A stretch of DNA of 64,000 nt from an uncultured Methanosarcinales archaeon (GCA_964343575.1 CAYFJV010000002.1:395809-459808), one strand, 5' to 3'; positions 12,775 to 55,327 are shown, counted from the stretch's first letter. The notes: generated by a model not told the origin, from the sequence alone. Made by a program: numbers and translations.

Positions 12775-13535
12775 ATATAGCTGGGAACTATGGGTCTTCC
12801 AGCTTCCTTTTCTTCTAGGCGAGCAGAAACAGTTCTAAAGTCAGTTGTGTAAAGCTCAAAAAGAAAGGGGTATGCTTCAGAAGGGAGCGCAGTTCTTCTT
12901 CTTTCTCTTACTTCAAAGAGTCTCTTAAACTTGTCAATGACAAGTGTGCAAAAGGGAGCCAAAAAAAGGTTGGCCCCGATAAGATAGGGAAGTGCATCCA
13001 TTGTTTTTTCAGGAGGAACTCCCATTATTTCGTTAACAAGAGGATAAACTACTGCTGTGAAAGCCGCTCCACTTAATCTATCTGCTAAATTAAGCCTAGT
13101 TGGTTCGAAACAATCAAGCACAGTTTCTCTTGCCGCAATTTCCTCTCTTGTAACTCCAAAAGCTCCCCTAATTACTTTATTAAAAGCGTTGTAGACAATT
13201 CCCGATGGAATATAACTGAGTAATGCTCCTGCGCGACTTCTCAACATCTCTGGCAAAGAAAAACCCTTCGCTAACTCTAGTCCTCCAAAGGCAATGCCAT
13301 AAAAAACGGCGCTACCAGCAATTGCAGCAGCATTATCTTTCGCGACGTTAAGTGGATCTTTTCTGATATCATCCAAAGTTCCAATAGCGTATACGAAAGG
13401 AACTACTGCCCAATCTTGTCCCCAATGACAAGCCTCTTTTGCAATTGTTCTGGGGCCTATTACGGCAGCAGTTGCAGAAAGGTTAGCTGCAACATTTGGA
13501 TCTACAGGTTGATTTAACAGCTCATCTAAAGACAT
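12771..13535 (-). CDS. hypothetical protein
   Basis: 254-aa ORF, no recognised motif. Confidence 0.45.
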   Translation of the reverse strand: MSLDELLNQPVDPNVAANLSATAAVIGPRTIAKEACHWGQDWAVVPFVYAIGTLDDIRKDPLNVAKDNAAAIAGSAVFYGIAFGGLELAKGFSLPEMLRSRAGALLSYIPSGIVYNAFNKVIRGAFGVTREEIAARETVLDCFEPTRLNLADRLSGAAFTAVVYPLVNEIMGVPPEKTMDALPYLIGANLFLAPFCTLVIDKFKRLFEVRERRRTALPSEAYPFLFELYTTDFRTVSARLEEKEAGRPIVPSYI

Positions 13536-13707: not shown

Positions 13708-13817
13708 TGGGGCTGCAGGGATTTGAACCCTGAACACCTAGATTTCAAAAACATTCACAAAAATTAGCGAATGCGCCTACTTCAGTCTAGTGCTCTTCCA
13801 GATTGAGCTACAGCCCC
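13708..13817 (-). tRNA. tRNA-Phe (anticodon GAA) with an intron of about 36 nt at the canonical 37/38 position
   Basis: Manual fold: acceptor GGGGCTG/CAGCCCC, D arm GCTC/GAGC, anticodon stem CTAGA/TCTAG, loop CU-GAA-G, T arm CAGGG-TTCAAAT-CCCTG, discriminator A. 43 nt lie between the anticodon-stem strands, which equals 7 loop nt plus about 36 intron nt. Confidence 0.65.
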
Positions 13818-35283: not shown

Positions 35284-35742
35284 ATGGAATTAGATGTTTA
35301 CGGCTCAAAAAAAGAGGAGCTTATTGCTCTTACTTCAGAAGAGATACTTCATTTTTTTTCTCAAATCCGTAATCGAAAACAGCGACTTTTGTTAATTCTT
35401 CATTATGCAACTGGAATGGCACTGGAAGAGATATTGCAGCTTCGAGCAGGGGCTCTTTGCAGCGCTTATGGTTTTGCTTGGGTGCAAGGGAGAAGAGGAG
35501 AAGTACTTTATCTAAGTCCCAAATTACATATTGCCTTGGAAGAGTGGGTATTTCTTCAGCAACTTCATCAGGATGATTTTCTTTTTCCTTTGCGCCAGAG
35601 TGAACTTCGTGATTTTTTCTCTTTTGAGAGACATTTAGCTTTGCTTCGTAGGCGAGCTGGCTTTTCTGAAGATCTGGTAGAAGATAGCTTTCGGGAGGCT
35701 GCTCGAAAGTACCTTCTTGAACAAGGATATTGTTGTCTTTAG
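35284..35742 (+). CDS. tyrosine-recombinase-like C-terminal fragment with degenerate catalytic residues (probable integrase remnant or pseudo-recombinase)
   Basis: LILHYATGMALEEILQLR resembles box I but lacks the conserved Arg; HLALLRRRAGFSEDLV...ARKYL resembles box II with His and Tyr present but the HxxR Arg replaced; only 152 aa. Confidence 0.45.
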   Translation: MELDVYGSKKEELIALTSEEILHFFSQIRNRKQRLLLILHYATGMALEEILQLRAGALCSAYGFAWVQGRRGEVLYLSPKLHIALEEWVFLQQLHQDDFLFPLRQSELRDFFSFERHLALLRRRAGFSEDLVEDSFREAARKYLLEQGYCCL

Positions 35743-42997: not shown

Positions 42998-43300
42998 TCA
43001 AAATTTTTCTTTTCCAATCCATTTTACAAAGAGATTGTAAAGAGTTGCTCCAACTATTCCTGTGATGAAACCAAATGTTGCTGCAATGAGCGGCATCCCA
43101 AGAAGAGCTCCAAAAGCAAGCACTGTGCCTTCACTTAAGCCGGGTGTTTCTGTAGAAATGAGCCATCCGAGACTTACAAATAGATCAATAAAAAATCCTC
43201 CAAATGAGTATATGACTCCTGCAAGGAGCCCAAGGAGTGCAAAGATAAGGGCTTGGAACTTTGCGTAATCGAGAATGTTTATTTTAGAATTCTTTTTCAT
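42998..43300 (-). CDS. small hypothetical membrane protein (3 TM)
   Basis: 100-aa hydrophobic ORF. Confidence 0.45.
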   Translation of the reverse strand: MKKNSKINILDYAKFQALIFALLGLLAGVIYSFGGFFIDLFVSLGWLISTETPGLSEGTVLAFGALLGMPLIAATFGFITGIVGATLYNLFVKWIGKEKF

Positions 43301-43365
43301 TTTGCTTGGCGGGTAGTTGCTTGATGTTTAAAGTTGTTGTTATCCGATTGTAAGCATTAATTTGT

Positions 43366-43719
43366 TCATTCTCTTCTTAGAATCTTCTCCATAGCCTTTC
43401 CTTTAGCTAACTCATCAATAAGCTTATCCAAATAGCGAATCTCTCGCATTGTTTCTTCTTCAATTTCCTCTATTCGAATTCCACAAACTACGCCTTTAAT
43501 CAAATTTCTTTTGGGATTTAACTTTGGAGCTTTTGCAAAGAAGGTTTCAAAATCTGTTTTCTTTTCTAATGCTATCTCTAGTTGTTTTTGAGTGTAACCA
43601 GTTAACCAGCGAATGATCTTGTCAACTTCTGCTTTAGTCCTTCCTTTTTTCTCTGCTTTAGTGATGTAGTGGGGATAGACACTAGCAAAACTCATTGAAT
43701 AAATTCTGTGTTTTTTCAT
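43366..43719 (-). CDS. conserved hypothetical protein, DUF2200-like
   Basis: [30 protein letters not shown] ... [12 protein letters not shown] ... [15 protein letters not shown] pattern recalled from the DUF2200 family. Confidence 0.45.
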
Positions 43720-43843
43720 CTTCTTCCCTCCTAGTTGTTTAGTTTAATAATTTTTTAGTTAATTTTTTTATGTATAGTAAGCTCTGTTTTAGTTTTTGGA
43801 AATTTCTCCCTCTTTTTTTACTTTTGTATCCTTAAAATTGTTT

Positions 43844-43907
43844 GGCATAACGATGTTATATTCTGGACTTCATGTTCGGAGCAATCTGAGCATAGCGAAG
43901 ATTGAAG
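43844..43907 (+). repeat. repeat element copy A (degenerate): ATAACGATGTTAT box present, hairpin decayed
   Basis: GGCATAACGATGTTATA followed by a decayed stem and a ...GCATAGCGAAGATTGAAG tail homologous to the other copies. Confidence 0.6.
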
Positions 43908-44027
43908 TATGACTTAGAGAAAAAGCTTTTTGCGAATATATTATAAGTTGTCTAATTAAAATGAATTGAAATATTTTTGCTACTTGTGAATGGATAAATT
44001 TATAATTGGAATTAATACCCAACCAGT

Positions 44028-44597
44028 ATGTCAAAATTATATCGTTTAGAAAATGGGGTCATTGAGATAATTGATGGTAATATTGCTGATTATGTTGGAG
44101 TAGAATCTTTAGTTTGTCCCACAACCCCAGGTTTGTTGATTGGAAATGTAGGAACGACTCGTGCCATAAAGGACAGGGCAGGTAGAGAATTTTTGGAAGA
44201 TGTCGATGAATTGCGCAGAAGAATAGGGTCGGCTCATCCCCAAGATGCATACGTGGTTAAACCAGGAAACATTCCAATTGATCGGATAGTTTTATCTGTA
44301 TGTGGATATGATCACAGAACCCCTTCAAGTGGAGTGTCATCTAATCCAGACATGGTACAGGGGGCAACAATGAATGCGTTACGGGTAGCACACGAAGCTG
44401 GTCTCAAGTCAATCGGATTCTCAGCACTAGGAACTGGAAACGGTGGAGTTTCCTTAGATGATGGCATTTCAAGAATGTTACATGAGTTTGGGAAACATTT
44501 ATTGGGAAAAACTTCAATGGAGAAACTTGGACTAATTCTTTATGGTAGTAGGGCATATTCAGTTGCACAGAAACATGCAGATGCGATGCTGACATAA
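44028..44597 (+). CDS. macro domain protein (ADP-ribose binding or processing)
   Basis: N-terminal I.IIDGNIADY..VESLVCPTTPGLLIGNVGTTRAIKDRAG and a later SIGFSALGTGNGGVS correspond to the macro-domain Gly-rich and catalytic loops. Confidence 0.55.
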   Translation: MSKLYRLENGVIEIIDGNIADYVGVESLVCPTTPGLLIGNVGTTRAIKDRAGREFLEDVDELRRRIGSAHPQDAYVVKPGNIPIDRIVLSVCGYDHRTPSSGVSSNPDMVQGATMNALRVAHEAGLKSIGFSALGTGNGGVSLDDGISRMLHEFGKHLLGKTSMEKLGLILYGSRAYSVAQKHADAMLT

Positions 44598-44636
44598 TGC
44601 CGTCCAACTAAAAACTTTTTCTCAAGTAATAATCCC

Positions 44637-44705
44637 ACTTAACGATGTTATGCCCCCTGGACTTTATGTCCAGGTCGAGGCGCAGCCGAGAAGTTAGAAG
44701 TTGGT
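44637..44705 (+). repeat. repeat element copy B (type 1)
   Basis: CTTAACGATGTTATG, hairpin CCTGGAC-TTTAT-GTCCAGG, tail TCGAGGCGCAGCCGAGAAGTTAGAAGTTGG. Confidence 0.8.
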
Positions 44706-44727
44706 AATAGTTAACTATAAGTGCACG

Positions 44728-45504
44728 CTATTTAGTCATTACAAAAATTTTGCAAGGTACGTTAAATTGAATGTCTTCTTTATGTTCTTGGAATTTTAGA
44801 GATTTTCTTAATATTTTAGGAAATCTTTTTCTAATGAATTCATTTAGGTAACGTAGTTTTTCTTTGTCATTGTGAAGTTCAGATTCTAATATCTTCTTAG
44901 AAGAAAATCTGTAGTCTATAGTATGAAATTCTTTGATTTTAGTAAAGTTTGCTTTTTTCATGGTTTCCAAAAATTCATCTTCTCTAAAGAAGTATCTTTT
45001 TCTTATAAGCATTTCAAAACCAGCAAGTTCGTCTTTCTTTCTGATAATATCTTGAAATAACATTTGATTTTCACCATTAAACATTATATTCCAAATAACT
45101 AACTTGCCATTTGGTTTTAAAATTCTAAATACTTCTTTAGAAATTTTTAATTGTTCATTTTTGGATACTTCATGTAAACCCATTTTAATGACTACTTTAT
45201 CAAAAAATTCATTTTCATAATTTGATTTATGGAGAGATTCAACGACAAAATGATCTTTTGCAAGTTTTGGAAGATTTTCTCTTGCTCTTTTTATCTGAAC
45301 TTCACTCTTATCTAAAAGAAAAAGATTGACAGCATTTTCTTTCTCTAAAATTCCCTTGCCTACCGCACCATAACCGCACATGGCGTCAAGAATTGTTTCA
45401 TTTGGTTTGGGATCTATTGCTTCAATTAATTTAGCCCAATCGTCTGGTTTTATACTATGTATCTGTTCATATGAAACAATCCTTATATCATATCCATGCG
45501 CCAT
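44728..45504 (-). CDS. class I SAM-dependent methyltransferase
   Basis: Motif I ILDAMCGYGAVG, post I LLDKS, motif IV-like LKPNGKLVIWN. Confidence 0.7.
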   Translation of the reverse strand: MAHGYDIRIVSYEQIHSIKPDDWAKLIEAIDPKPNETILDAMCGYGAVGKGILEKENAVNLFLLDKSEVQIKRARENLPKLAKDHFVVESLHKSNYENEFFDKVVIKMGLHEVSKNEQLKISKEVFRILKPNGKLVIWNIMFNGENQMLFQDIIRKKDELAGFEMLIRKRYFFREDEFLETMKKANFTKIKEFHTIDYRFSSKKILESELHNDKEKLRYLNEFIRKRFPKILRKSLKFQEHKEDIQFNVPCKIFVMTK

Positions 45505-45572
45505 TATTTGATTAAAATTTTTGTAACTTTAAAAAGCTTAGCGTGCACTACATACTACCAACTTCTAATTGA

Positions 45573-45622
45573 GCTTAACGACGTTATGCTTTCTGCGAAG
45601 CAGATCGAGCAAAGTGAGAAGT
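45573..45622 (+). repeat. repeat element copy C (variant with a short GAA-loop hairpin)
   Basis: GCTTAACGACGTTATG, hairpin TCTGC-GAA-GCAGA, tail TCGAGCAAAGTGAGAAGTT. Confidence 0.7.
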
Positions 45623-45707
45623 TTTCTTACTGTATTTGCCAACTAATTAATAACTGCTTTAGCAGACAAAATATGCGTAGCATGGGGGGAGTTCCAAATA
45701 ATTAATA

Positions 45708-46439
45708 TTAGTAATTAGTACAAAAATCTATGAATGCTCTTCCTAATGGAGTTAACCTTCCGGAGACAATACGAAAACCCATTGAAGATGTCATTGTTCC
45801 AAATATGCTTTTATCTGTATTAAATAATCCCATCTGATAGATTTCTCCATATGCGGATTTGATCATATCTAAATCAATCCCAGGTAGAGCCGCTTGAAAA
45901 ACTTTTCCAATTGCAGCCATTTGAACTGGATCTTTATCTAAATTATGAAACTCAAAATAAGCATCTGGATTATTAGATATAGAAATAATTCTTAAGTGTA
46001 GATCACTTAAATTGTTAACTAGATGTAAAAAATATTCTTTTTGCTCACTTTTTAGATTATATCTTAAAGAATTTATGATTATTCCTTTGTAACAGAATAT
46101 TTTTTGTTTTTGGTAATTTGATAAGACACCTCTTATAGATTCTTCAAAAATAAATGCAAATTCTTCTGTTTTTATATAATCAACATTTGTAGAATTAATC
46201 TGTTGGTGGTGTTCTTCAAGTTTAATTGTCAAATCTCTAATAAAATTATGGAGGCGCTTCTCTTTTTTTTTAGGAATGTAATCTCCAATTAATGAAGATA
46301 TTGGACCACCAATTAGTGGGATTGCAGAAAGGCTCGCTTTAATTACATTTACAAAATGATCTCTTGCTGGAGTGTGATCTAATGATGGCTTTATACTAAA
46401 TTCTACACCTTTAACAATTTCAACTTTATTTTCATTCAT
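45708..46439 (-). CDS. hypothetical protein
   Basis: 243-aa ORF, overlaps the start of the downstream gene by 4 bp (operon). Confidence 0.5.
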   Translation of the reverse strand: MNENKVEIVKGVEFSIKPSLDHTPARDHFVNVIKASLSAIPLIGGPISSLIGDYIPKKKEKRLHNFIRDLTIKLEEHHQQINSTNVDYIKTEEFAFIFEESIRGVLSNYQKQKIFCYKGIIINSLRYNLKSEQKEYFLHLVNNLSDLHLRIISISNNPDAYFEFHNLDKDPVQMAAIGKVFQAALPGIDLDMIKSAYGEIYQMGLFNTDKSIFGTMTSSMGFRIVSGRLTPLGRAFIDFCTNY

Positions 46440-46798
46440 TTTCTTTCTTCACGATAAAGCCAAACCCCTACTATTGTTAAGAAAAGGCTTGCGATGTACC
46501 AGATAATATAGGCCCAGTGGAATTGAGCTGAAAAGAGAATTGGCAATGAAATTCCGATGATCAATGAAAGAATCCCTGCCCAAACTAAAACTAATGGCAT
46601 ACCCCCTTTGTCATGTACTTTTACTGTTTCAGAAGCAATTACTTTTGTAAATTTTCCTAATTCAGCCATTGCAGATGATTCTTGGCTTCTTTCATCATTT
46701 TGACATTCCATGCATAAGGGTAAATTAAAATTTTTCTTTGAGAATTTGAAAACTTTTTCAGAGATATTTTTCTTACACTTGTTACAATATAACACCAT
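46436..46798 (-). CDS. zinc-ribbon plus 2-TM small membrane protein
   Basis: CNKC...CMEC four-Cys N-terminus followed by 2 hydrophobic helices. Confidence 0.5.
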   Translation of the reverse strand: MVLYCNKCKKNISEKVFKFSKKNFNLPLCMECQNDERSQESSAMAELGKFTKVIASETVKVHDKGGMPLVLVWAGILSLIIGISLPILFSAQFHWAYIIWYIASLFLTIVGVWLYREERK

Positions 46799-46898
46799 GA
46801 TCTAGTTATGTAACTAATCTTTATTAAATATTATCATTCTACAGGAACTCCCCTCATTTTTAAAAGTTGGCAAATACTTTTTACAGTAAGAAAATTAA

Positions 46899-46971
46899 GC
46901 ATAACGATGTTATGTCCCCCAGACTTTACGTCTGGGTCGAGGAGCGTAGCGACGAGAAGTTGAGAGATGAG
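46899..46971 (+). repeat. repeat element copy D (type 1)
   Basis: GCATAACGATGTTATG, hairpin CCCAGAC-TTTAC-GTCTGGG, tail TCGAGGAGCGTAGCGACGAGAAGTTGAGAG. Confidence 0.8.
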
Positions 46972-47431
46972 CGACCAAGAAGCCTCTCATTTTCAGCACG
47001 GGAAAAGATTTGCGGAAACACGCACAGAATTTAGCAAAGATCTTCATTGATTATTTTTTGTTTTTTTTGTTGTTTTATTTTAAAAAAAATGATCCTTCTG
47101 AAGATGCGAAATTGTTTCCTACAAATCAGTTTTTGTCGTCGTAGAAAAGTTAAATTTCTTTGAAAAATCATGCTTATCAAAAGGCAAAAAATCCACAAAA
47201 TTTTAATGCAAATTTTCAAAATTATCGAGCATAAAAACCTCAAAAAGTTTCTTATGATGCGCAGAATAATGCAGAAAATTTTGATGAGAAAAGTGGATTT
47301 TTTGCACAAGAATTGTTTAATGATTTTTCAAGACAAAAAGAAAATTCATCGACGACAAAATTCCAGAAAAGTGCTGAAAATGATGCAGAAAAAGGCTTCC
47401 CATTTACATAAAAAGCTCATCTCTCAATTGG

Positions 47432-47503
47432 ACATAACGATGTTAAGCTTCGGGGGCTTTACGCCCCCGCAAGGAGCTTTAGCGACGCAGAGTTTTTTGA
47501 GAC
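47432..47503 (+). repeat. repeat element copy E (type 2)
   Basis: ACATAACGATGTTAAG, hairpin CGGGGGC-TTTAC-GCCCCCG, GCAAGG, tail ...GCAGAGTTTTTTGAGAC. Confidence 0.8.
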
Positions 47504-47513
47504 ATATAGAAAG

Positions 47514-48269
47514 TTATTTTTTAGCCTGACTCCATAATAAATTGAAGAACACTTTGTATGTTTGAGCAAAGTTTTCGTCTTTAATTAATAAGCCGTAAGG
47601 TTCTTTTCCGTAAGTAATAAGGAAAAAGTAATCGTTTAAAACCCCATACTCTGTTTTTGTATTTACATTCATGTATCTTACTTCGGTAAGAGGCATTTTT
47701 TCTCTAATAGGCCCCCATTTCTTTCCAATTTTATTGATTAAGATTTTTAGTTTTACTTTGTCTTTAATTCTTTTCTTGTGAACTACCTCTAAGAAAAATC
47801 CCTCTAATTTGCTGAATGATTCTAATGGTGCAGAAGCAATGAAATATTCATCTCCTGTTTTCCATGAGTTGATAATTTCAGTGTATAATGATTTAATTCC
47901 TCTAATTCCTGAAAAATATTTGAAGTCACTTAATTTAGATATTCCACTTGGCTTTACTTTTAGTTTAGAAATGAAATCTAAAAGTTGATCTTTTTCCTGT
48001 TCAATTTGCTTCTCTTTCTCCACAAATAGATTGGCTAAAGAATCAGGATCAGAAGCACGAAAGACTTTGATGTTATTTACAATCTTAAAATTAACTAAGC
48101 CTTTCTCCGAGAGGCTGTTAAGGATTGTGTAAATCTGAGAGCTTGGAATCTTCGTTCTTTCGCAGATTTTTCCTGTTCGGCTTTCTCCATGTTGTTGGAG
48201 ATCTAAGTAGGTTAAAGCTTCTCTTTCTGATAATCCCGCTGATTTTAAGGCTTCTACATTGTTTTCCAT
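47514..48269 (-). CDS. TrmB-family transcriptional regulator
   Basis: N-terminal winged-HTH (LSEREALTYLDLQQHGESRTGKICERTKIPSSQIYTILNSLSEKGLV) plus a C-terminal TrmB-like domain; 251 aa. Confidence 0.6.
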   Translation of the reverse strand: MENNVEALKSAGLSEREALTYLDLQQHGESRTGKICERTKIPSSQIYTILNSLSEKGLVNFKIVNNIKVFRASDPDSLANLFVEKEKQIEQEKDQLLDFISKLKVKPSGISKLSDFKYFSGIRGIKSLYTEIINSWKTGDEYFIASAPLESFSKLEGFFLEVVHKKRIKDKVKLKILINKIGKKWGPIREKMPLTEVRYMNVNTKTEYGVLNDYFFLITYGKEPYGLLIKDENFAQTYKVFFNLLWSQAKK

Positions 48270-48344
48270 ATTACTACTAATGCAATTAGTAGCGAATATT
48301 TATAAACTTTTCTGTGAATTTTATATTCACTAATTAGTGATAAA

Positions 48345-49370
48345 ATGACTTCGGAAAAGAAAATACCAAAATTGGAATTTACGGAGGAGCGAATAACTTC
48401 TCTTGTAGAGAAATTAGTAGATGATGATACGCTAATTGTAACTGATTCATATGGATTTCCAACTCTGAGCCAACTTGGTAGAACTGCACTTGTTCGTGAT
48501 TGTTATGCTGAAGATGTTGAAGAGATTAAAAGCGGGAATGAGTATTCAAAAGTTCTTGCTGTTGGTGGCTGTACTGCTTTAGATGTTGGAAGGGCCTGTG
48601 CTGTTGGTAAAGAAGTCGTTACAATCCCTACTATTCTTTCTACTTCTTGTATAAGTGTAGATAGAAGTATTATCAAATATCCAGAAGGAAGTAGACTGGA
48701 GAAAACTGTTGCTCCAACGAGAACAATCGTAAGTATTCCTAGTATTGCTGAAACACATATAGCAGATTTGGAAAAATGGTCGCAATCTGGGTTTGGAGAT
48801 TTGTTTGCAAACATAAGCGCTTCTATTGATCTACAATACGAAGTTGGTAATCTTAGTTATGAAGCAGTAAGAAATAATGTTCCAGAATGTTTTGAAGCTC
48901 TTGAGTGGGTAATCAATCAATTTCAAGGTTATGATGAAGATTGCTTGAGAAGATTGGCAACATATTCTCATAATTCATCTTTAATCGTTATAGAAAGAGA
49001 AGATACCAAACTGAGTGCTGCTGGAGAACACAAGCTCTATCATAAAATGATTGACCAGCAAAAGCAGTACAGAGAAGATAGACCAACACATGGTCAATTA
49101 GTTGCTCTTGGAACATTACTTGCTGGAAGAATTTATACAAAACAATCAGGAGAACAAAAACTCTATGAGCAATTAGTTACAGCTTATGAAAAACTAGGTT
49201 TGCCTCTGAGCTATGCTGAACTTCATGATATCGGAATAGAACGAGAGCATATTGTTGATGGTTTGAAAAGCATAGCAGGAAGTAACACTCATTTAGGAGA
49301 TCACTTCGCTCAAGGCGATTATTCTCTCTTAGATAGAGTTTTTGGTGGTGGAAAAAATGAAAAAGTTTGA
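48345..49370 (+). CDS. DHQS-like / iron-containing alcohol dehydrogenase superfamily protein (glycerol-(1-phosphate) dehydrogenase-like)
   Basis: VLAVGGCTALDVGRA (GGG..D..K-type NAD motif) and TIPTILSTSCIS (PTtaS-like) motifs. Confidence 0.55.
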   Translation: MTSEKKIPKLEFTEERITSLVEKLVDDDTLIVTDSYGFPTLSQLGRTALVRDCYAEDVEEIKSGNEYSKVLAVGGCTALDVGRACAVGKEVVTIPTILSTSCISVDRSIIKYPEGSRLEKTVAPTRTIVSIPSIAETHIADLEKWSQSGFGDLFANISASIDLQYEVGNLSYEAVRNNVPECFEALEWVINQFQGYDEDCLRRLATYSHNSSLIVIEREDTKLSAAGEHKLYHKMIDQQKQYREDRPTHGQLVALGTLLAGRIYTKQSGEQKLYEQLVTAYEKLGLPLSYAELHDIGIEREHIVDGLKSIAGSNTHLGDHFAQGDYSLLDRVFGGGKNEKV

Positions 49371-50250
49371 GCATTTTCCACTAGAGAGCATAGATTCTGT
49401 TTTGGCAGAGATAAAACTAGATGATTATGAGCAAGCAGTTTCTGATATTTGTAATCAAATTAGTGAATACTACCAAAGACTTCCAGAGTTTGATGGAAAA
49501 AAACCAAAATTAATAATTGGATTATCTGGTGGAATTGATTCTACTATTGTAAGTTATTTGGCAACAAGAGCAGTAGGAACAGAAAATGTAATTACTGTTA
49601 ATATGCCTGCTTATGATGGAGATGAAAGCGTAGAGAAATCAAACTTAGTGAGTAGAATTTTAGGGACTGAACATTATTCAATTCCAATTAATTCAATCGT
49701 TGAAGCTGAAGTAGATAATATTAGCAAAGATTTCCCAATTGATTCAAATACTGAAACAGGAAAAATCAGAAGAGGCAATTTAGCATCAAGAGCAAGAGTA
49801 GCTGTACTTTATGATATTGCTAGAGAAGTAAATGGAAAGATTCTTGGAACAGGAAACAGAACAGAATTTGTGCAGGGCTATGCTGCTAAATGGGGAACTC
49901 CTATTTCATTTGATTTTGGAGTTTTGGATGATTTGTATAAAGTAGATGTTTATGCAATAGCCGAAGTTTTAGATGTTCCGCAAGAAATTATTGACGCTGT
50001 TCCAACTACTGGTTATTACAAAGGACAAAGCCATGAAGAAGAATTAGGAGCAACACTTGAAGAGCAAGATGTAGCAGCATATTTGCTTTTTGAAAAAGGC
50101 ATGAGTAAAGAAGCAATTGTTAAGGAATTTGGAGCTTCTGCTAATTATTTAGATTCAATGCTTCAGAGATATTCAAGAAGTGTAGATAAAAGAGTAATAA
50201 GACAGGAACATGTAACTCTTAGAAATTTTGGTGGTGAAAATGTTCAGTAA
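49342..50250 (+). CDS. nadE: NH3-dependent NAD+ synthetase (PP-loop ATP pyrophosphatase)
   Basis: PP-loop LSGGIDSTIV; the rest collinear with NadE; start overlaps the upstream gene. Confidence 0.8.
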   Translation: MVVEKMKKFEHFPLESIDSVLAEIKLDDYEQAVSDICNQISEYYQRLPEFDGKKPKLIIGLSGGIDSTIVSYLATRAVGTENVITVNMPAYDGDESVEKSNLVSRILGTEHYSIPINSIVEAEVDNISKDFPIDSNTETGKIRRGNLASRARVAVLYDIAREVNGKILGTGNRTEFVQGYAAKWGTPISFDFGVLDDLYKVDVYAIAEVLDVPQEIIDAVPTTGYYKGQSHEEELGATLEEQDVAAYLLFEKGMSKEAIVKEFGASANYLDSMLQRYSRSVDKRVIRQEHVTLRNFGGENVQ

Positions 50251-51175
50251 TTACTCTAAAGCATTAGTGATTGGAGCAGGAAGCGGAAGAGATATTGCTT
50301 CATCTGTTCTGATAACTGAAAAATTAAGAGAACAGGGGATTGATGTAGATTTAGCAGGTTTTCTGACACCATGGGCTTTGCATGAATTTGATGGAGAATT
50401 GGAAAAAACTGTAAATAAGTCATCTAAGCCAAGCAGAAAATTTATTGCTACACAAAAAGAGGTTTCTTTAGATTCATATTTTGAGCCAGAATTGCCCGAG
50501 ATAAATGAGGAATTAGGTTTGGGTATTGGCGAGATATATTTGTTTTCATTACAGCATGGAACAGAAAGCTTAAGAGAAGAATTAGAGGGATTAGTTAGAC
50601 AAAGAGATTATGATTTAATTGTTGCTGTTGATGTTGGAGGAGATATTCTTGCACATAGGCGAGATTTGGCTTCTGTTTATACTCCAATTGTTGATCTTAC
50701 TTGTTTAGAAGTATTAGCAGATTTGAAAACAACTGCTGACAAATATTTGACAGTTGTTGCTCCTGGAGTTGATGGAGAGATTCCAAGCCAGAGATTAGCT
50801 GAAATAATTGGTAATGAAAGAATTTTGAGAAGAGAACAATTAAACCCAGAAAGCAGAAATTATCAGACTTTTGTTCAAGTTTATGATGAAATTAATAGAA
50901 GAACAAAATCATCTAGTCATACAGGAGATGTAATTAGAAAGATAGTAGAGGGAAAATCAGATTTTACGGAGGAGTATAAAAGAAATGGAGTTTCATTTAC
51001 TGTTAAGTTAGATAAAGAATTAGCAAGTGGAATTTATTATTTTGATTTAGAAGCTGTTAAATCTCAGCGAAGGAGTGTTGGTGTTAGTTATGAAAATATT
51101 TCAGAAGCTCATAGGTTAATGAAGGAAATGGGGGCCAGCGGAACAGAAGTTGATTTAACGTATGTTCCAAGATAG
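50228..51175 (+). CDS. hypothetical protein, third gene of the DHQS-like/NadE operon
   Basis: 315-aa ORF whose start overlaps the nadE stop; LVIGAGSGRD and VAVDVGGD Gly-rich loops. Confidence 0.5.
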   Translation: MVVKMFSNYSKALVIGAGSGRDIASSVLITEKLREQGIDVDLAGFLTPWALHEFDGELEKTVNKSSKPSRKFIATQKEVSLDSYFEPELPEINEELGLGIGEIYLFSLQHGTESLREELEGLVRQRDYDLIVAVDVGGDILAHRRDLASVYTPIVDLTCLEVLADLKTTADKYLTVVAPGVDGEIPSQRLAEIIGNERILRREQLNPESRNYQTFVQVYDEINRRTKSSSHTGDVIRKIVEGKSDFTEEYKRNGVSFTVKLDKELASGIYYFDLEAVKSQRRSVGVSYENISEAHRLMKEMGASGTEVDLTYVPR

Positions 51176-51261
51176 TAATTAGTTCAAAGGAGTATGGGGT
51201 TTTAGTTAAAGGAGTCAGGCTCTTCGCAGAAGGTAATACTGTTTATGTCTCAAAAAATTAA

Positions 51262-51339
51262 GCTTAACGATGTTATGTGCCCATGACTTTATGTCATGGT
51301 GCGTAGCGTTAGCGGAGCAAGTTGGATTCTCATGTTGAG
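51262..51339 (+). repeat. repeat element copy F (type 1)
   Basis: GCTTAACGATGTTATG, hairpin CCATGAC-TTTAT-GTCATGG, tail TGCGTAGCGTTAGCGGAGCAAGTTGGATTCTCATG. Confidence 0.8.
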
Positions 51340-51395
51340 CGGAGGGTCGCCATTGTAGAAAAGCTTTTAAGTTTCAAACTTTTTGATTATTTAAA

Positions 51396-52019
51396 ATGAA
51401 ATTTTATTTATCATCATACAAACTTGGAGAAAAAGTTGATAAGCTTAAAGAGATGATGCCAACTGGTAAAAAGCTTGGTTATATTCCTAATGCTTTAGAT
51501 TTTTCTGGAGCTGATCCTGCACGAAGAGAACAATCAATTAAGAAAGATGTAGACGAATTAAAGAGTCTTGGTTTTGATGTAGAAGTAATTGATTTGCAAG
51601 ATTATTTTGGAAAAAATGGTGAATTAAAAAGAAAATTAGACCAATTAGGAGGAGTATTTGTTAGAGGTGGAAATACTTTTGTTTTGCGCCAAGCAATGAA
51701 ACTAAGTGGTCTTGATGAAGTTCTTAAAGGCATGAAAGATAGAGATGATTTTCTTTATTCAGGATATAGTGCAGGAATTTGTGTTTTAGCTCCAGATTTA
51801 CACTCACTTCAAATTGTTGATGATCCGAATGATACACCATATGAAGGATTAGAAAAAGTTATTTTTGAAGGATTAGGAATATTAGATTATATGATTTTAC
51901 CACATTATAAGTCAGATCATCCAGAGTCTGCTGATATAGATAAGGAAGTTGAATATTGTAAACAGCACGATGTGAAGTTTAAGACTCTGCGAGATGGTGA
52001 AGTCATAATAATTGAATAG
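51396..52019 (+). CDS. pepE: peptidase S51 family (peptidase E / alpha-aspartyl dipeptidase-like)
   Basis: VFVRGGNTFVL...GYSAGICV (catalytic Ser in the GxSAG context) pattern of S51 peptidases. Confidence 0.65.
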   Translation: MKFYLSSYKLGEKVDKLKEMMPTGKKLGYIPNALDFSGADPARREQSIKKDVDELKSLGFDVEVIDLQDYFGKNGELKRKLDQLGGVFVRGGNTFVLRQAMKLSGLDEVLKGMKDRDDFLYSGYSAGICVLAPDLHSLQIVDDPNDTPYEGLEKVIFEGLGILDYMILPHYKSDHPESADIDKEVEYCKQHDVKFKTLRDGEVIIIE

Positions 52020-52087
52020 ATGGCGACCCGATTAGGTTCTTAGAGTTTAGCTTTAGCGTACTTCTAATTACATGAGAATCCAATTGC

Positions 52088-52162
52088 ACATAACGATGTT
52101 AAGTTTCGGAGGGTTTATCCCTCCGCAAGGTTAACGTAGTTAACCGCAGAGTTGAATTTGAG
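52088..52162 (+). repeat. repeat element copy G (type 2)
   Basis: ACATAACGATGTTAAG, hairpin CGGAGGG-TTTAT-CCCTCCG, GCAAGG, second hairpin GGTTAAC-GTA-GTTAACC, tail GCAGAGTTGAATTTGAG. Confidence 0.8.
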
Positions 52163-52266
52163 TTTTCCTATTAATCCTGCTTTAGCAGACATACGTTTAG
52201 GGGCTTTCCAAACACATTAATTTAAGGGGCTTTGGTTTTCATCATTATTTAGGAGTAATTTTATAA

Positions 52267-53013
52267 ATGGCTTGTTTTTTCTTTATTATTATGGATTTAA
52301 GAACAATAGCAGACAGATTTGTAGAAATTGGAGAAAGATTCCCTGGGCCATATATTGATTCAGGTATGCCATGTTTTGGTAGAGATTTCACTGGAATTTC
52401 TGCAAATTTGGGAGCAGGAGAAGTATATAATACTCAAGATTCTGCTTACCAATTAGTCTTATCAATTTCTATGGCAGATCATCCTGTTATCGCTGATGTT
52501 CTTGGATTACCCAAATATGATGGTGATGATGAATCTATTGCTCGTGTTGTTGGAAGAATGACTGAAGAAAAAATTCTTGATGGGGTGAGGATTTTAGATT
52601 TGGGTTGTGGATTAATTCCAACATTTGCACGATCTGCAAGAAGATTAGGAGCAGATGTTTACACCGTTGATGTAATTTTGCCTACTGCTTTTGAATATTC
52701 CAGAGAACTTTTTCCAGAAGATGCAAGAGATGCTGAACAAAAAGATCACTTTGCAATTGATTTAAACCAAAGAAATGCAGGTAAAAAAATTGCTAAGAAG
52801 TTTGGTTCTGATTTTGATTTAGTAACTTCAGCATATATTGAAGAAGGAGCACATTTTGGTTGTGGAATTGAAGCACATTTTTATGGTGGTTCAGGTTTTG
52901 CAAAACAATTTCTAGGACAAAATGGTGTTTATTTTGGGACACATGCTTCTGGAATATTAGTTCAAGGTAATCAGTTTGTGAAAACAGAGTTAGGGAAAGT
53001 GACATCTGATTAA
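52267..53013 (+). CDS. putative class I SAM-dependent methyltransferase
   Basis: Motif I ILDLGCGLIPTFARSARRLGADVYTVD. Confidence 0.5.
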   Translation: MACFFFIIMDLRTIADRFVEIGERFPGPYIDSGMPCFGRDFTGISANLGAGEVYNTQDSAYQLVLSISMADHPVIADVLGLPKYDGDDESIARVVGRMTEEKILDGVRILDLGCGLIPTFARSARRLGADVYTVDVILPTAFEYSRELFPEDARDAEQKDHFAIDLNQRNAGKKIAKKFGSDFDLVTSAYIEEGAHFGCGIEAHFYGGSGFAKQFLGQNGVYFGTHASGILVQGNQFVKTELGKVTSD

Positions 53014-53279
53014 ACCAAAGCCCCCACATAGTTTTTTTCATTCTAGTTTTTATCATCAAGGAAAGCCCCGTCATCTTAAAACTCAAATTCAATTAAACTT
53101 AACTCGTTATATCTAAACTTTTAGGATTTGGCCCCCTTCGTAGTCGAATTTCTTCGTTTTAAACAGCCCATAAAGTGTTATACTGACTTCTCTTTTTGGT
53201 AGTAAATATATAATGTACCCAATATCTCACAAGACAATCTTGGTTCCTGTTTAAATAGAAGCTCATTACATGAGCATCT

Positions 53280-54128
53280 ATGGATGTTGCAGGAATAATT
53301 CAAAGAAAAGCACTTCTTTTAGGTTTGAGACCAAACACTATTAAAACATATACTGCTATTGTACAAAGATTTTTGAGAAAATACAAGTTAAATGTTTGGG
53401 AAGTAACTACAAAAGATATCGAAAAACACTTACTTGTTTTACTGGAGAAAAATAAATCTGGGAGCTCAGTTAATGTACATCTTAATGCCTTAAAATTCTT
53501 CTTTGAGAAGTGTTTAGGTAAAAGAGTAACGCTTAATATGAAGTTCACAAAGCAAAGAAGAAAGTTGCCTACATTTCTCACACAAGAAGAGATAATCTTT
53601 TTTCTTGAGGTAATTGAAAACAGAAAACATAAGCTAATGATTTCTTTACTTTACTCTGCGGGTTTACGGGTTAGCGAATTGCTGGATTTGAAAGTTAGAG
53701 ATCTAGAGCTTTCTAAGAATCATGGTTGGGTGCGTGATGGGAAAGGGGGGAAAGAGAGGCCATTCATCATTGCTGAGAGGATCAGATTAGATCTAGAGAA
53801 TTGGTTGTTTGAACAAAGACTTAACGATTGTGATTATTTGTTTGGTAACAAGGGGAGAAAGATGAGTACACAAACAGTAAGGAAGATTATTCATAACACA
53901 AAGAAGAAAGCAAGAATTAAGAAGAATATTGGCCCACATAGTTTAAGACACTCTTTTGCAACACATTTCTTAGAGCAAGGCAATGCTCTAACTGAATTGC
54001 AACCCCTACTTGGACATAGCAGAATTGAGACAACTCTTGTTTATTCGCATATGGCATCGCCACAATTGTTAAAGATGCAAAGCCCATTTGACAATCTAGA
54101 GATTAATAATGAGAAGAGATTGAAATGA
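53280..54128 (+). CDS. tyrosine recombinase / integrase (XerC/XerD/XerA family)
   Basis: Box I SAGLRVSELLDLKVRDL, box II HSLRHSFATHFLEQG...LLGHSRIETTLVYSHM with R-H-R-Y catalytic residues; 282 aa. Confidence 0.85.
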   Translation: MDVAGIIQRKALLLGLRPNTIKTYTAIVQRFLRKYKLNVWEVTTKDIEKHLLVLLEKNKSGSSVNVHLNALKFFFEKCLGKRVTLNMKFTKQRRKLPTFLTQEEIIFFLEVIENRKHKLMISLLYSAGLRVSELLDLKVRDLELSKNHGWVRDGKGGKERPFIIAERIRLDLENWLFEQRLNDCDYLFGNKGRKMSTQTVRKIIHNTKKKARIKKNIGPHSLRHSFATHFLEQGNALTELQPLLGHSRIETTLVYSHMASPQLLKMQSPFDNLEINNEKRLK

Positions 54129-55327
54129 AGTTAAAGAGAATCAAGTACAAAGATATCGAAGAAACACCCCAGATTAAAGTAAACAAGAGTTTCAAATCCC
54201 ACTTTTTTGGAAGTAGTCCTGCTCCCTTCATTGGAAGATATGGCTATCCTAACATCAATGTTGGAGTTTTATCGCCTCAGTACTCTGGTGATACGTCTTA
54301 TTTCAACTCACCAAAGCAGTGGAGCAAAGATATTCTTAGTACAGGACAAATTGCCAACATGCGTTTTGGACTTGTTAATTCTCGAACGAAGTGGCACATT
54401 AAAGATTTAGCTCAGAGAAAACGATTCATTGACATTGTGCAGGAATCAGGAGTAGTTGCAAGCTCAGTAGAGTTAGAAGTTGATCTTAAGAATGTTCCAG
54501 TTGGTGGTTACAAAGCTGAGAAAGAAGTGACACTCTTCGGCCCACGAGCAGAAGTGAAGAAAGCTCGAGTGACAGCTAATTCTCGGGTGGATACACGAGT
54601 TGATCGAGTGATAAGTGACACTGATTTGAAAGCTGTGAAAGGCGTTATGCGTTTGTATAAGCATGGTTTTGAAGAGAGCTTTTTGAATAAAGCACTTTCT
54701 GTTGGGACGCTTGGTGTTGGTAAGAACAGGAAGTTGGTGCCAACCCGTTGGAGCATTACAGCAGTTGATGATACGGTAGGAAAAGAGTTGATTAAAGAGA
54801 TTAAGGATATGCAATGTGGGGAGTATGCAGCTTACTTTGGTGGTGAGTGGGGAAACTATTACTTGTTTTTGTTCTTTCCGGATGTTTGGAGTTACGAGCT
54901 TTTTGAGATGTATCTAAAAAAACCAAAAGAAGCAAATCCTTGGAGTAAACAAGGACTCTTTTATTCCACAGATTATGAGAGTTATGAAGGAAGGAAAAAG
55001 TATGCTGAGGAAACTGCTGGCGGTTATTACGCCTCGCGATTACCTGTGCTTGAAGAGATGAAGAAACAAAAGCGGCAGGGAAGTTGTTTGGCACTTCGTT
55101 TTATTACAGATGAGTATCAGATCCCTTTGGGTGTGTGGATTTGTCGGGAGAGTTCTCGTAAATCGGTTGGCAGTAAAAGGATTGTATTTGCTTCGCAGGA
55201 GCTGATGCTAGAATATGCTCGCAGATTGGTCAGTGATAAGTTTGCTTTTGATCTTGATCTCTTGCTTGGGAGAAGTAAATTGCTTCAGAATAGAAAGCAG
55301 CAGGTGAAGTTGAGCTCGTTTTTTTGA
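54125..55327 (+). CDS. conserved archaeal protein, possibly Nre-family (DUF650/DUF651) DNA-repair-associated protein
   Basis: 400-aa ORF whose ATG overlaps the recombinase stop (ATGA); family assignment from recalled patterns only. Confidence 0.4.
   Translation: MKLKRIKYKDIEETPQIKVNKSFKSHFFGSSPAPFIGRYGYPNINVGVLSPQYSGDTSYFNSPKQWSKDILSTGQIANMRFGLVNSRTKWHIKDLAQRKRFIDIVQESGVVASSVELEVDLKNVPVGGYKAEKEVTLFGPRAEVKKARVTANSRVDTRVDRVISDTDLKAVKGVMRLYKHGFEESFLNKALSVGTLGVGKNRKLVPTRWSITAVDDTVGKELIKEIKDMQCGEYAAYFGGEWGNYYLFLFFPDVWSYELFEMYLKKPKEANPWSKQGLFYSTDYESYEGRKKYAEETAGGYYASRLPVLEEMKKQKRQGSCLALRFITDEYQIPLGVWICRESSRKSVGSKRIVFASQELMLEYARRLVSDKFAFDLDLLLGRSKLLQNRKQQVKLSSFF

Follow-up and report, generated by a model that had tools for sequence, protein, structure and literature searches.

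Introduction

Integrons are chromosomal platforms in which promiscuous cassettes are stacked beside the gene for a tyrosine recombinase and a simpler primary site separates that gene from the array, and the archaeal integrons described by Ghaly et al. have IntI-domain integrases and canonical attC sites (PMC9668308). Integrative mobile elements exploiting Xer (IMEX), among them the CTX, VGJ and TLC phages, the gonococcal island and Legionella LME-1, lack an integrase of their own and use the dif site of the host (PMC5357621, PMC9765430), and the single-recombinase Xer modules XerS/difSL, XerH/difH and archaeal XerA/dif consist of a gene directly beside a 28-31-bp imperfect palindromic site (PMC2958812, PMC3646895, PMC5357621). 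In the pdif modules of Acinetobacter plasmids, small cargo bounded by Xer-type sites moves between replicons, also without its own recombinase. Here we describe a locus in 64,000 nucleotides of archaeal DNA (CAYFJV010000002.1:395809-459808; this whole stretch is called the window) that resembles each of these systems in part. The segment at 43.84-53.12 kb is probably a tandem array of seven cassettes, captured singly when site-specific recombination took place at a dif-like site that closely precedes a XerA-family gene in the chromosome of a member of the Woesearchaeota (DPANN).

Xer-like recombinases are the supposed ancestors of the integron integrases, and we know of no intermediates seen before between an Xer/dif module and a cassette platform. 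Literature searches found no earlier description of XerA-linked cassette arrays of this kind. An initial annotation of the window had recognised an island ending at a complete tyrosine recombinase; the enzyme at its end is indeed complete, but what precedes it has the structure of seven independently mobile units, not of one element. The seven repeated structured sites and the dif-like site, which were not described in that account of the segment, explain the island.

Results

Structured sites divide the array into seven cassettes

Every intergenic gap between the cargo blocks of the array carries one copy of a repeat, and the seven sites, each of about 65 nt and all in the same orientation, split the array into seven cassettes (Table 1). 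The 11-nt core of the repeat, TAACGATGTTA, occurs in the window as six exact copies and one copy with a single mismatch, all on the + strand and all between 43.8 and 52.1 kb. A covariance model (CM) built from related sites retrieves exactly seven sites from the window, at 24-70 bits; the next-best match, at 12925-12967 (14 bits), is not a site. Rfam, searched over the whole window, reports only tRNAs at gathering thresholds and no match at E<=1 within the array.

The site consensus reads TTnnnCWTAAC-GAT-GTTAWGnnn, followed by hairpin 1 (a 7-8 bp stem with the loop TTTAY), hairpin 2 and a closing RAG, and in its layout a cassette site has a left arm like that of dif, then a central region, then a right arm that is only partial. 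The terminal site, 160 nt upstream of the recombinase gene, agrees with the cassette sites in its left arm and first two central bases, but its right arm is complete and the hairpins are missing; its central region is ACTCGT where that of the cassette sites is ACGATG, so that only AC is shared. We propose it as the primary insertion site, the counterpart of attI or dif. Among the related loci described below (designated by L numbers), a terminal variant of the form ATTnnnCWTAAC-nnn-YTATAWSYAAAC lies 160-430 nt upstream of xerA in ten, including L002, L005, L007, L026, L031, L099, L225, L226 and L228. The right arm of the published Pyrococcus dif is probably TTATATCTAAA.

At the distal end of the array, site 1 keeps its original left arm (TTTGGCATAAC), which is followed by GATGTTAT and by a hairpin body that has decayed, with the exact core TAACGATGTTAT at 43848. 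In one site subtype (window 52120-52145; L005:6110-6130; L029; L060) hairpin 2 is GGTTAAC-nnn-GTTAACC, a near-copy of the core palindrome, and because it resembles the core an alternative fold as one long hairpin is possible. The single long hairpin predicted for site 7 is not general, however, and holds only where hairpin 2 mimics the core (GGTTAACnnnGTTAACC).

Table 1. Features of the cassette array and its recombinase gene. Coordinates are those of the window; X and X' are the complementary blocks at the two ends of a cassette, and arms are scored as complementary positions out of five.
Feature	Coordinates	Strand	Content	Score or ends
Site 1	43841..43904	+	Distal, degenerate	CM R1 30.6 bits, E=1e-9
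Site 2	44633..44694	+		CM 55.2 bits
Site 3	45569..45623	+	Core variant TAACGACGTTA, short hairpin	CM 23.8 bits
Site 4	46895..46958	+		CM 68.7 bits
Site 5	47428..47491	+		CM 69.7 bits
Site 6	51258..51321	+		CM 66.5 bits
Site 7	52084..52148	+		CM 57.3 bits
Terminal dif-like site	53091..53118	+	28 nt (11-6-11): AATTAAACTTA ACTCGT TATATCTAAAC	
XerA-type tyrosine recombinase gene	53280..54128	+	282 aa; Phage_integrase and SAM_4 matches	
Cassette 1 (792 bp)	43850..44641		Macro-domain gene 44028-44597(+), Pfam Macro 4.7e-13	X/X' inverted repeat 9 nt, imperfect; arms 1/5 (decayed)
Cassette 2 (936 bp)	44642..45577		Class I S-adenosylmethionine (SAM) methyltransferase 44728-45504(-), Pfam Methyltransf_25/11/31, UbiE	X 44694-44706, X' 45556-45568; 13 nt, exact complement
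Cassette 3 (1326 bp)	45578..46903		243-aa gene, family unassigned, 45708-46439(-); Zn-ribbon/transmembrane 120-aa gene 46436-46798(-)	X 45622-45634, X' 46882-46894; 13 nt; arms 5/5
Cassette 4 (533 bp)	46904..47436		AT-rich, without credible gene	Intact: X/X' 13 nt; arms 5/5
Cassette 5 (3830 bp)	47437..51266		TrmB 47514-48269(-), divergent from three-gene (+) operon; Pfam/NCBIfam	X/X' 14 nt; arms 5/5
Cassette 5 operon	48345-49370, 49342-50250, 50228-51175	+	Dehydroquinate synthase (DHQS)-like / NAD-synthase-like / DUF1152	
Cassette 6 (826 bp)	51267..52092		Peptidase_S51 (PepE-like) gene 51396-52019(+), Pfam 7.5e-20	X 51322-51335, X' 52070-52083; 14 nt; arms 5/5
Cassette 7 (1009 bp, proximal)	52093..53101		248-aa gene 52267-53013(+), SAM methyltransferase-like motif only	X 52152-52166, X' 53078-53092; 15 nt

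The unit runs from core to core

Downstream of the RAG of one site (i) stand bases whose exact reverse complement precedes the TT of the next (i+1), and these end-blocks measure 9, 13, 13, 13, 14, 14 and 15 nt across the seven cassettes of the window. In 69 consecutive site pairs from all loci the complementary block has a median of 12 nt, against 6 nt in mismatched controls, and it reaches at least 9 nt in 49 of the 69 pairs as opposed to 6 of 342 controls. Complementarity extends to the core itself, where the five variable bases after GTTA in site i match the five before TAAC in site i+1. All five are complementary in 42 of the 69 composite pairs, compared with 2 of 70 arms in situ and about 5% at random, and the signal is limited to positions 1-5. 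From distal to proximal, the arm scores of the window cassettes are 1, 3, 5, 5, 5, 5 and 5 of 5; the left arm belonging to cassette 7, AAACT, is located in the terminal site, where it is complementary at 5/5 positions to the right arm of site 7.

Comparisons between genomes show which part of a site travels with which cargo. Body and tail are common in five pairs, prefix and body in none and the prefix only in 11, such that the hairpin body moves with the downstream cargo and in no pair with the upstream cargo. One cassette, L031 87->986, is 92.7% identical to L102 4130->5029 over a block that spans core to core. Because the body goes with the downstream cargo and the arms are complementary between sites i and i+1, we take the mobile unit to run from core to core, with the crossover inside TAACGATGTTA. 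An attC-like reading with the crossover at the 3' RAG|TT, first suggested by the complement between tail i and prefix i+1, is ruled out by the linkage of the body and by the arm complementarity.

With complementary arms and cargo-flanking blocks, a circularised cassette would have a perfect 9-bp-armed palindrome inside a 14-16-bp stem. When the circle junction is reconstituted in silico (the left part of site i+1 joined to the body of site i) and folded with DNA parameters, the predicted structure is a compact cloverleaf or four-way junction with a closing stem of 14-16 bp, a 9-bp core hairpin (loop GAT) and hairpins 1 and 2. These junctions have predicted energies of -20 to -29 kcal/mol and z-scores of -5.7 to -10.2, and the same sites in situ reach -11 to -13.5. 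Over 71 pairs, the median is -22.8 kcal/mol for composites, against -14.0 in situ and -14.2 for mismatched pairs (Wilcoxon p ~1e-11). In 21 composites, 96.7% of the cells of the core hairpin and hairpin 1 are paired as against 74.7% when shuffled (0/500 shuffles as high), double-sided changes occur in 12/16 pairs of the composites, and slid controls are 31-46% paired. Only three cells are G-T, which fits a Watson-Crick constraint at the level of DNA.

Related arrays lie upstream of xerA

A scan for the core pattern, using one genome per species and giving 100 loci, found arrays in dozens of metagenome-assembled genomes (MAGs) of Woesearchaeota, Nanoarchaeota and Pacearchaeota, with 97 strong sites in 38 of the 100 loci and all sites of a locus on one strand throughout. 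Wherever a site-anchored locus contains xerA, the gene lies downstream of the sites, on their strand (9/9), and the XerA-anchored loci L005, L002, L227, L228 and, weakly, L007 have the same arrangement. The tie between recombinase and array that the initial annotation had suggested is thus seen in every locus holding both. The site family is present upstream of homologous XerA genes (41-75% identity) in at least 11 other Woesearchaeota and Nanoarchaeota loci, where the cargo differs; the full layout of array, primary site and xerA is found in at least ten other loci, and the terminal site is present in L007, where few or no cassettes are seen. As a negative control, the core was found in none of 80 distant Xer loci (<=44% identity) from a XerA-anchored metagenome scan, and the core scan of viral contigs gave 16 single matches, about the chance expectation, and no full site.

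Three contigs from three samples (L004, L005 and L006) have identical XerA proteins and are identical over the ~275 nt upstream of the gene, beyond which they have three different left arms and three different upstream cassettes. The divergence begins exactly at ...CW|TAAC of the terminal site, and this is population-level turnover at the xerA-proximal site.

Several single loci deserve mention. At L226:1100-6700, with a XerA 56% identical, the array, placed and oriented as in the other XerA-anchored loci, has the variant core TAATCAATGTTA in place of TAACGATGTTA, which suggests that site and enzyme co-evolve. L086 carries on its - strand, near 2620-2700 and 700-790, an 'empty' cassette in which two sites are a ~16-nt hairpin apart (..CAGAG TTTTTCCGCAGAAAAA TTAAACATAAC..), as if X were joined to X' without cargo. 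Full-scoring sites also occur on two short contigs binned as Candidate Phyla Radiation (CPR) bacteria, L038 (a Nomurabacteria bin) and L062 (a Saccharibacteria bin), and the L038 cassette prefix is identical to those of archaeal L078 and L126; either these contigs are mis-binned, or ultra-small bacteria and archaea share cassettes.

The recombinase resembles XerA

The best family by far for the recombinase is NCBIfam XerA (NF040815), at 210.3 bits against a cutoff of 220; the match to IntI (TIGR02249) scores 178 against a cutoff of 265 and is split in two stretches. The XerA structures 5hxy and 4a8e align end to end with residues 14-266. IntI4 (2a3v) aligns in two parts (query 19-175 to 21-180 and query 195-269 to 242-316), leaving about 42 IntI4 residues (181-241), the IntI-specific domain around patch III, without counterpart. 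The catalytic residues R130, K158, H220, R223, H246 and Y255 are invariant in 26 homologues. As judged from its sequence, the enzyme is XerA-like and catalytically complete and lacks the IntI insertion, in agreement with the initial suggestion of an Xer-type enzyme; it is not of the kind found in phages or integrative and conjugative elements (ICE). The reported overlap of its stop codon with the start of the next gene (ATGA; nre, 54125-55327) is present, and the gene downstream of xerA differs by lineage (Nre, ThrRS, Hef, Lhr or rpS7). The closest homologues of the recombinase are all in Woesearchaeota and Nanoarchaeota MAGs, and the window contains archaeal markers in the archaeal Nre gene and an intron-bearing tRNA (13708-13817, - strand, ~110 nt), which Rfam detects and ARAGORN in bacterial mode misses.

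There is no second full-length Xer gene in the window. A 152-aa open reading frame (ORF) at 35284-35742 (+), among core genes, has 27% identity to the N-terminal part of the XerA catalytic domain and is probably an inactive, truncated remnant of a tyrosine recombinase. Between the terminal site and the xerA start, 30-120 nt upstream and beside a TATA-like box, CACTGG(A/T)CA repeats are found in L005, L026, L031, L069, L099, L112, L226 and L228; at 53225-53250 of the window they are degenerate and barely recognisable. These motifs may be an operator controlling recombinase expression. Two loci have an ORF6N-domain gene between the terminal site and xerA that abuts or overlaps the xerA start (L227:9107-9997 and L225:1284-1493), and its product may be an accessory factor.

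Composition and cargo of the array

The array (43841-53122) has a GC content of 33.6%, against 40.1% for the remaining window. Its 11 ORFs average 33.5% GC, compared with 40.6 +/- 2.3% for 50 ORFs outside (Mann-Whitney p=6e-6), and their GC at third codon positions (GC3) is 22.8% as against 33.1% (p=4.5e-4); xerA is array-like at 34.6%. The low GC of the segment and its mixed gene orientation (five genes on the - strand and six on the +) are therefore as first described. Horizontal acquisition, also proposed then, is borne out by the deviant composition and by the closest relative (L001-L003, XerA 75% identical), which has other genes at the array position; the gene block differs again in other relatives. 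To the left of the array, 0.8 kb of likewise rather low GC (42998-43840, GC 34-39%, with a transmembrane protein at 42998-43300 and DUF2200 at 43366-43719) contains no site; it may have belonged to the array at an earlier time and decayed since, or may simply be flanking DNA.

The gene content of the initial annotation is recovered by Pfam and NCBIfam, apart from its second methyltransferase (52267-53013), which has no Pfam match and an NCBIfam match to CpaM at E=0.009. Of the two supposed SAM methyltransferases, the first belongs to class I, in small-molecule (UbiE/BioC-like) families and not among the DNA methylases, and the second is recognised at the level of a motif. The characterisation of the cargo as defence- and modification-like was not upheld, as PADLOC finds no system in the window, the matches being a methyltransferase domain to mad2 and weak helix-turn-helix hits to Csa3/CARF. 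The first operon product of cassette 5 (48345-49370) has a weak match to glycerol-1-phosphate dehydrogenase (G1PDH) and iron-dependent alcohol dehydrogenase (Fe-ADH), within the DHQS-like superfamily. Cassette 4 contains (46959-47427) only overlapping low-complexity AT-rich ORFs, none with a Pfam match, and may be a non-coding or decayed cassette. Domain searches found no recombinase domain and no transposase, phage, conjugation or replication genes among the array cassettes.

The cassettes of relatives have a median length of 1.4 kb and occur with genes in both orientations (70 ORFs on the + strand and 46 on the -). Their cargo includes PIN, RHH, ParE, HEPN, MNT and Fic proteins, Mrr-type nucleases, regulators and many unknowns, which is the usual mix of chromosomal integrons. 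The window cargo is nearly unique in the data set, with the exception of TrmB-like regulators. No other contexts were found for the PepE and Macro cassettes, which occur in the same array only, in three samples of one project. The ends of cassette 3 recur in L032.

Discussion

In a plausible scenario, the dyad arms (CWTAA / TTAWG), which are like those of dif, are bound by XerA, and strand exchange takes place where the left arm meets the central region (...CWTA|AC...). Because the internal sites share ACGATG, full recombination between them could excise or reshuffle cassettes; for cassette 6 the predicted circle junction is ...ACATGAGAATCCAATTGCACATAACGATGTTATGTGCCCATGAC... and the empty site predicted after its loss is ...AAAAATTAAGCTTAACGATGTTAAGTTTCGGAGGG.... 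Cassette circles would then insert at the terminal site, and since the terminal and cassette central regions share only AC, insertion would probably be a one-strand exchange finished by replication, in the way that CTX phage enters dif and attI recombines with attC. The newest cassettes would be those nearest xerA, with which the distal decay of the arms and of the CM scores (31, 55, 24, 69, 70, 67 and 57 bits for sites 1-7) is consistent. From the cassette-specific stems and the conserved loops, the circle site would act as folded single-stranded or cruciform DNA, and this folded form would be the substrate. Somewhat more cautiously, we lean towards the broader view that this is an integron-analogous gene-capture platform widespread in Woesearchaeota and Nanoarchaeota, in which a XerA-family recombinase without the IntI domain stacks minimal cassettes at an adjacent dif-like site, the palindromic core lying in a four-way junction, and that it would represent a path leading from Xer/dif to a system of integron type, independent of the known one or possibly ancestral-like.

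Several observations weigh against this scenario. The recombinase scores just below the XerA family cutoff, and we infer the catalytic role of XerA only from conserved adjacency and orientation. In four between-genome pairs the tail is common but the hairpin body is not, which a crossover confined to the core does not explain. None of the loci examined contains a composite (episomal) site in cis. Neither an excised circle nor an empty junction was observed, and the array is identical in the three samples with this population. The unequal central regions make a two-strand exchange problematic, and the one-strand model that would probably replace it is borrowed from other systems. Nor do the signals of strand composition flip at the terminal site: GC skew is +0.12 to its left and +0.16 to its right, GTTG counts are 292 vs 123 on the left and 80 vs 24 on the right, and over the whole 64 kb the bias keeps the same sign (GTTG 372 vs 147, TGGT 351 vs 136). 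The terminal site is therefore probably not a dif located at the terminus. GTTG and TGGT tetramers are polarised towards dif in Thermococcales (PMC5357621), and if they act in the same way here the true dif would lie beyond the right end of the window.

This absence of a flip also fits an alternative that we regard as a possibility, though a distinctly less probable one, in which the cassette platform is as described but the XerA beside it is a dedicated paralogue that has an attI-like site to itself, the housekeeping Xer and dif being elsewhere. The narrowly missed equivalog cutoff, the array-like GC of xerA and the variation of its downstream neighbour in every lineage point the same way. 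Against it, the terminal site has the length and layout of dif and is present even where cassettes are few or missing (L007), modules with the recombinase next to dif are known from single-recombinase Xer systems and some archaea (PMC5357621), and the window has only the one full-length Xer. A more radical proposal, which we consider unlikely, dissociates the repeats from xerA altogether: they would be hairpins like repetitive extragenic palindromes (REP) or miniature inverted-repeat transposable elements (MITE), or regulatory hairpins, in a hypervariable region, with the cassettes moved by a trans-acting enzyme such as a single-stranded DNA (ssDNA) transposase, or not at all, and the proximity of xerA incidental. 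Watson-Crick-only covariation and conserved loops do fit recognition of folded ssDNA, which HUH enzymes use too, the link between XerA and the sites is one of conserved adjacency and orientation, and four pairs share the tail only. Yet the core resembles a tyrosine-recombinase site with the dyad arms of dif, the terminal site shares the left arm and retains that of the last cassette, orientation relative to xerA is strict in all loci, the junction polymorphism falls exactly at the terminal site before an identical xerA, and the array is without a transposase gene.

That the segment is a single genomic island (a prophage, ICE or plasmid remnant) brought in once by its own integrase is scarcely credible: low GC and an adjoining integrase-family gene speak for it, but the segment is interrupted by seven recombination sites and its cassettes each have paired ends of their own, individual cassettes are common to different arrays, no phage, conjugation or replication genes and no tRNA or direct-repeat att borders were found, and throughout the clade the recombinase family is conserved and is followed by core genes. 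A canonical integron with IntI and attC cassettes, of the kind that Ghaly et al. described from Archaea in 2022, is very improbable, despite a likeness that extends from the layout of platform, primary site and neighbouring tyrosine recombinase to cassette sites conserved in structure (covarying stems) above sequence, ends complementary across the cargo, a cargo of toxin-antitoxin modules, small enzymes and unknowns, and site sequences homogeneous at the level of the lineage. The partial TIGR02249 match and the core halves GCATAAC/GTTATGT, which resemble R''/R' boxes (the attC of Nanoarchaeota has ACATAAC...GTTATGG; PMC9668308 Data S9), are also in its favour. However, the IntI-specific domain is lacking, and the R''- and R'-like boxes are 3 nt apart (GCATAAC GAT GTTATGT) instead of 50-140 nt. 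An attC is a single imperfect hairpin with extrahelical bases, whereas the site here is a short palindromic core with its hairpins outside and 3' of the boxes and a long cassette-specific stem, predicted to form a four-way junction. The structured part is at the 5' end of the unit and goes with the downstream cargo, opposite to attC, and the genes are in both orientations, so that there is no common promoter (Pc) logic. The core motif is also absent from the accessible part of the PMC9668308 supplement. Membership of the integrons thus fails on the missing IntI domain, on the lack of a canonical attC (as judged by box spacing and hairpin position), on the reversed linkage of site and cargo and on the mixed orientation.

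In function, the locus is an analogue of integrons or of IMEX arrays. It fits IMEX no more than loosely: these too lack their own integrase, have a dif-like site with one good and one defective arm, are placed in tandem at a dif-like site and have heterologous central regions that suggest one-strand exchange, and the attachment site of CTX is folded ssDNA. The units here are, in contrast, neither phages nor islands but minimal cassettes that hold one gene or a few (median 1.4 kb), arrays comprise seven or more of them and have a structured site that is uniform, the host is an archaeon with a single XerA, and it is doubtful that the target is the true dif. In the single-recombinase Xer modules the adjacency of gene and site is the same and the window protein aligns end to end with XerA crystal structures, but no accumulation of cassette arrays is known there and the strand skews of the window do not switch at the site. 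The pdif modules resemble the cassettes in their small cargo bounded by Xer-type sites, but pdif sites alternate (C/D then D/C) and have no hairpin bodies; membership fails since the sites here are direct repeats with structured bodies, on one strand in the window and in every array.

The locus is a natural system in which structured DNA sites appear to let an Xer-type enzyme that lacks the IntI domain run a cassette array. If this is so, biochemistry, and possibly tool development, would gain a compact and testable site of ~100 nt that is predicted to form a four-way junction, and one could test directly if recombination of folded DNA has evolved repeatedly among the tyrosine recombinases. 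Given the difference of the site from attC, such cassette arrays would probably have been missed by attC-based surveys. DPANN archaea have tiny genomes and are host-dependent, and arrays of this kind would then provide a mechanism for their hypervariable accessory gene pool.

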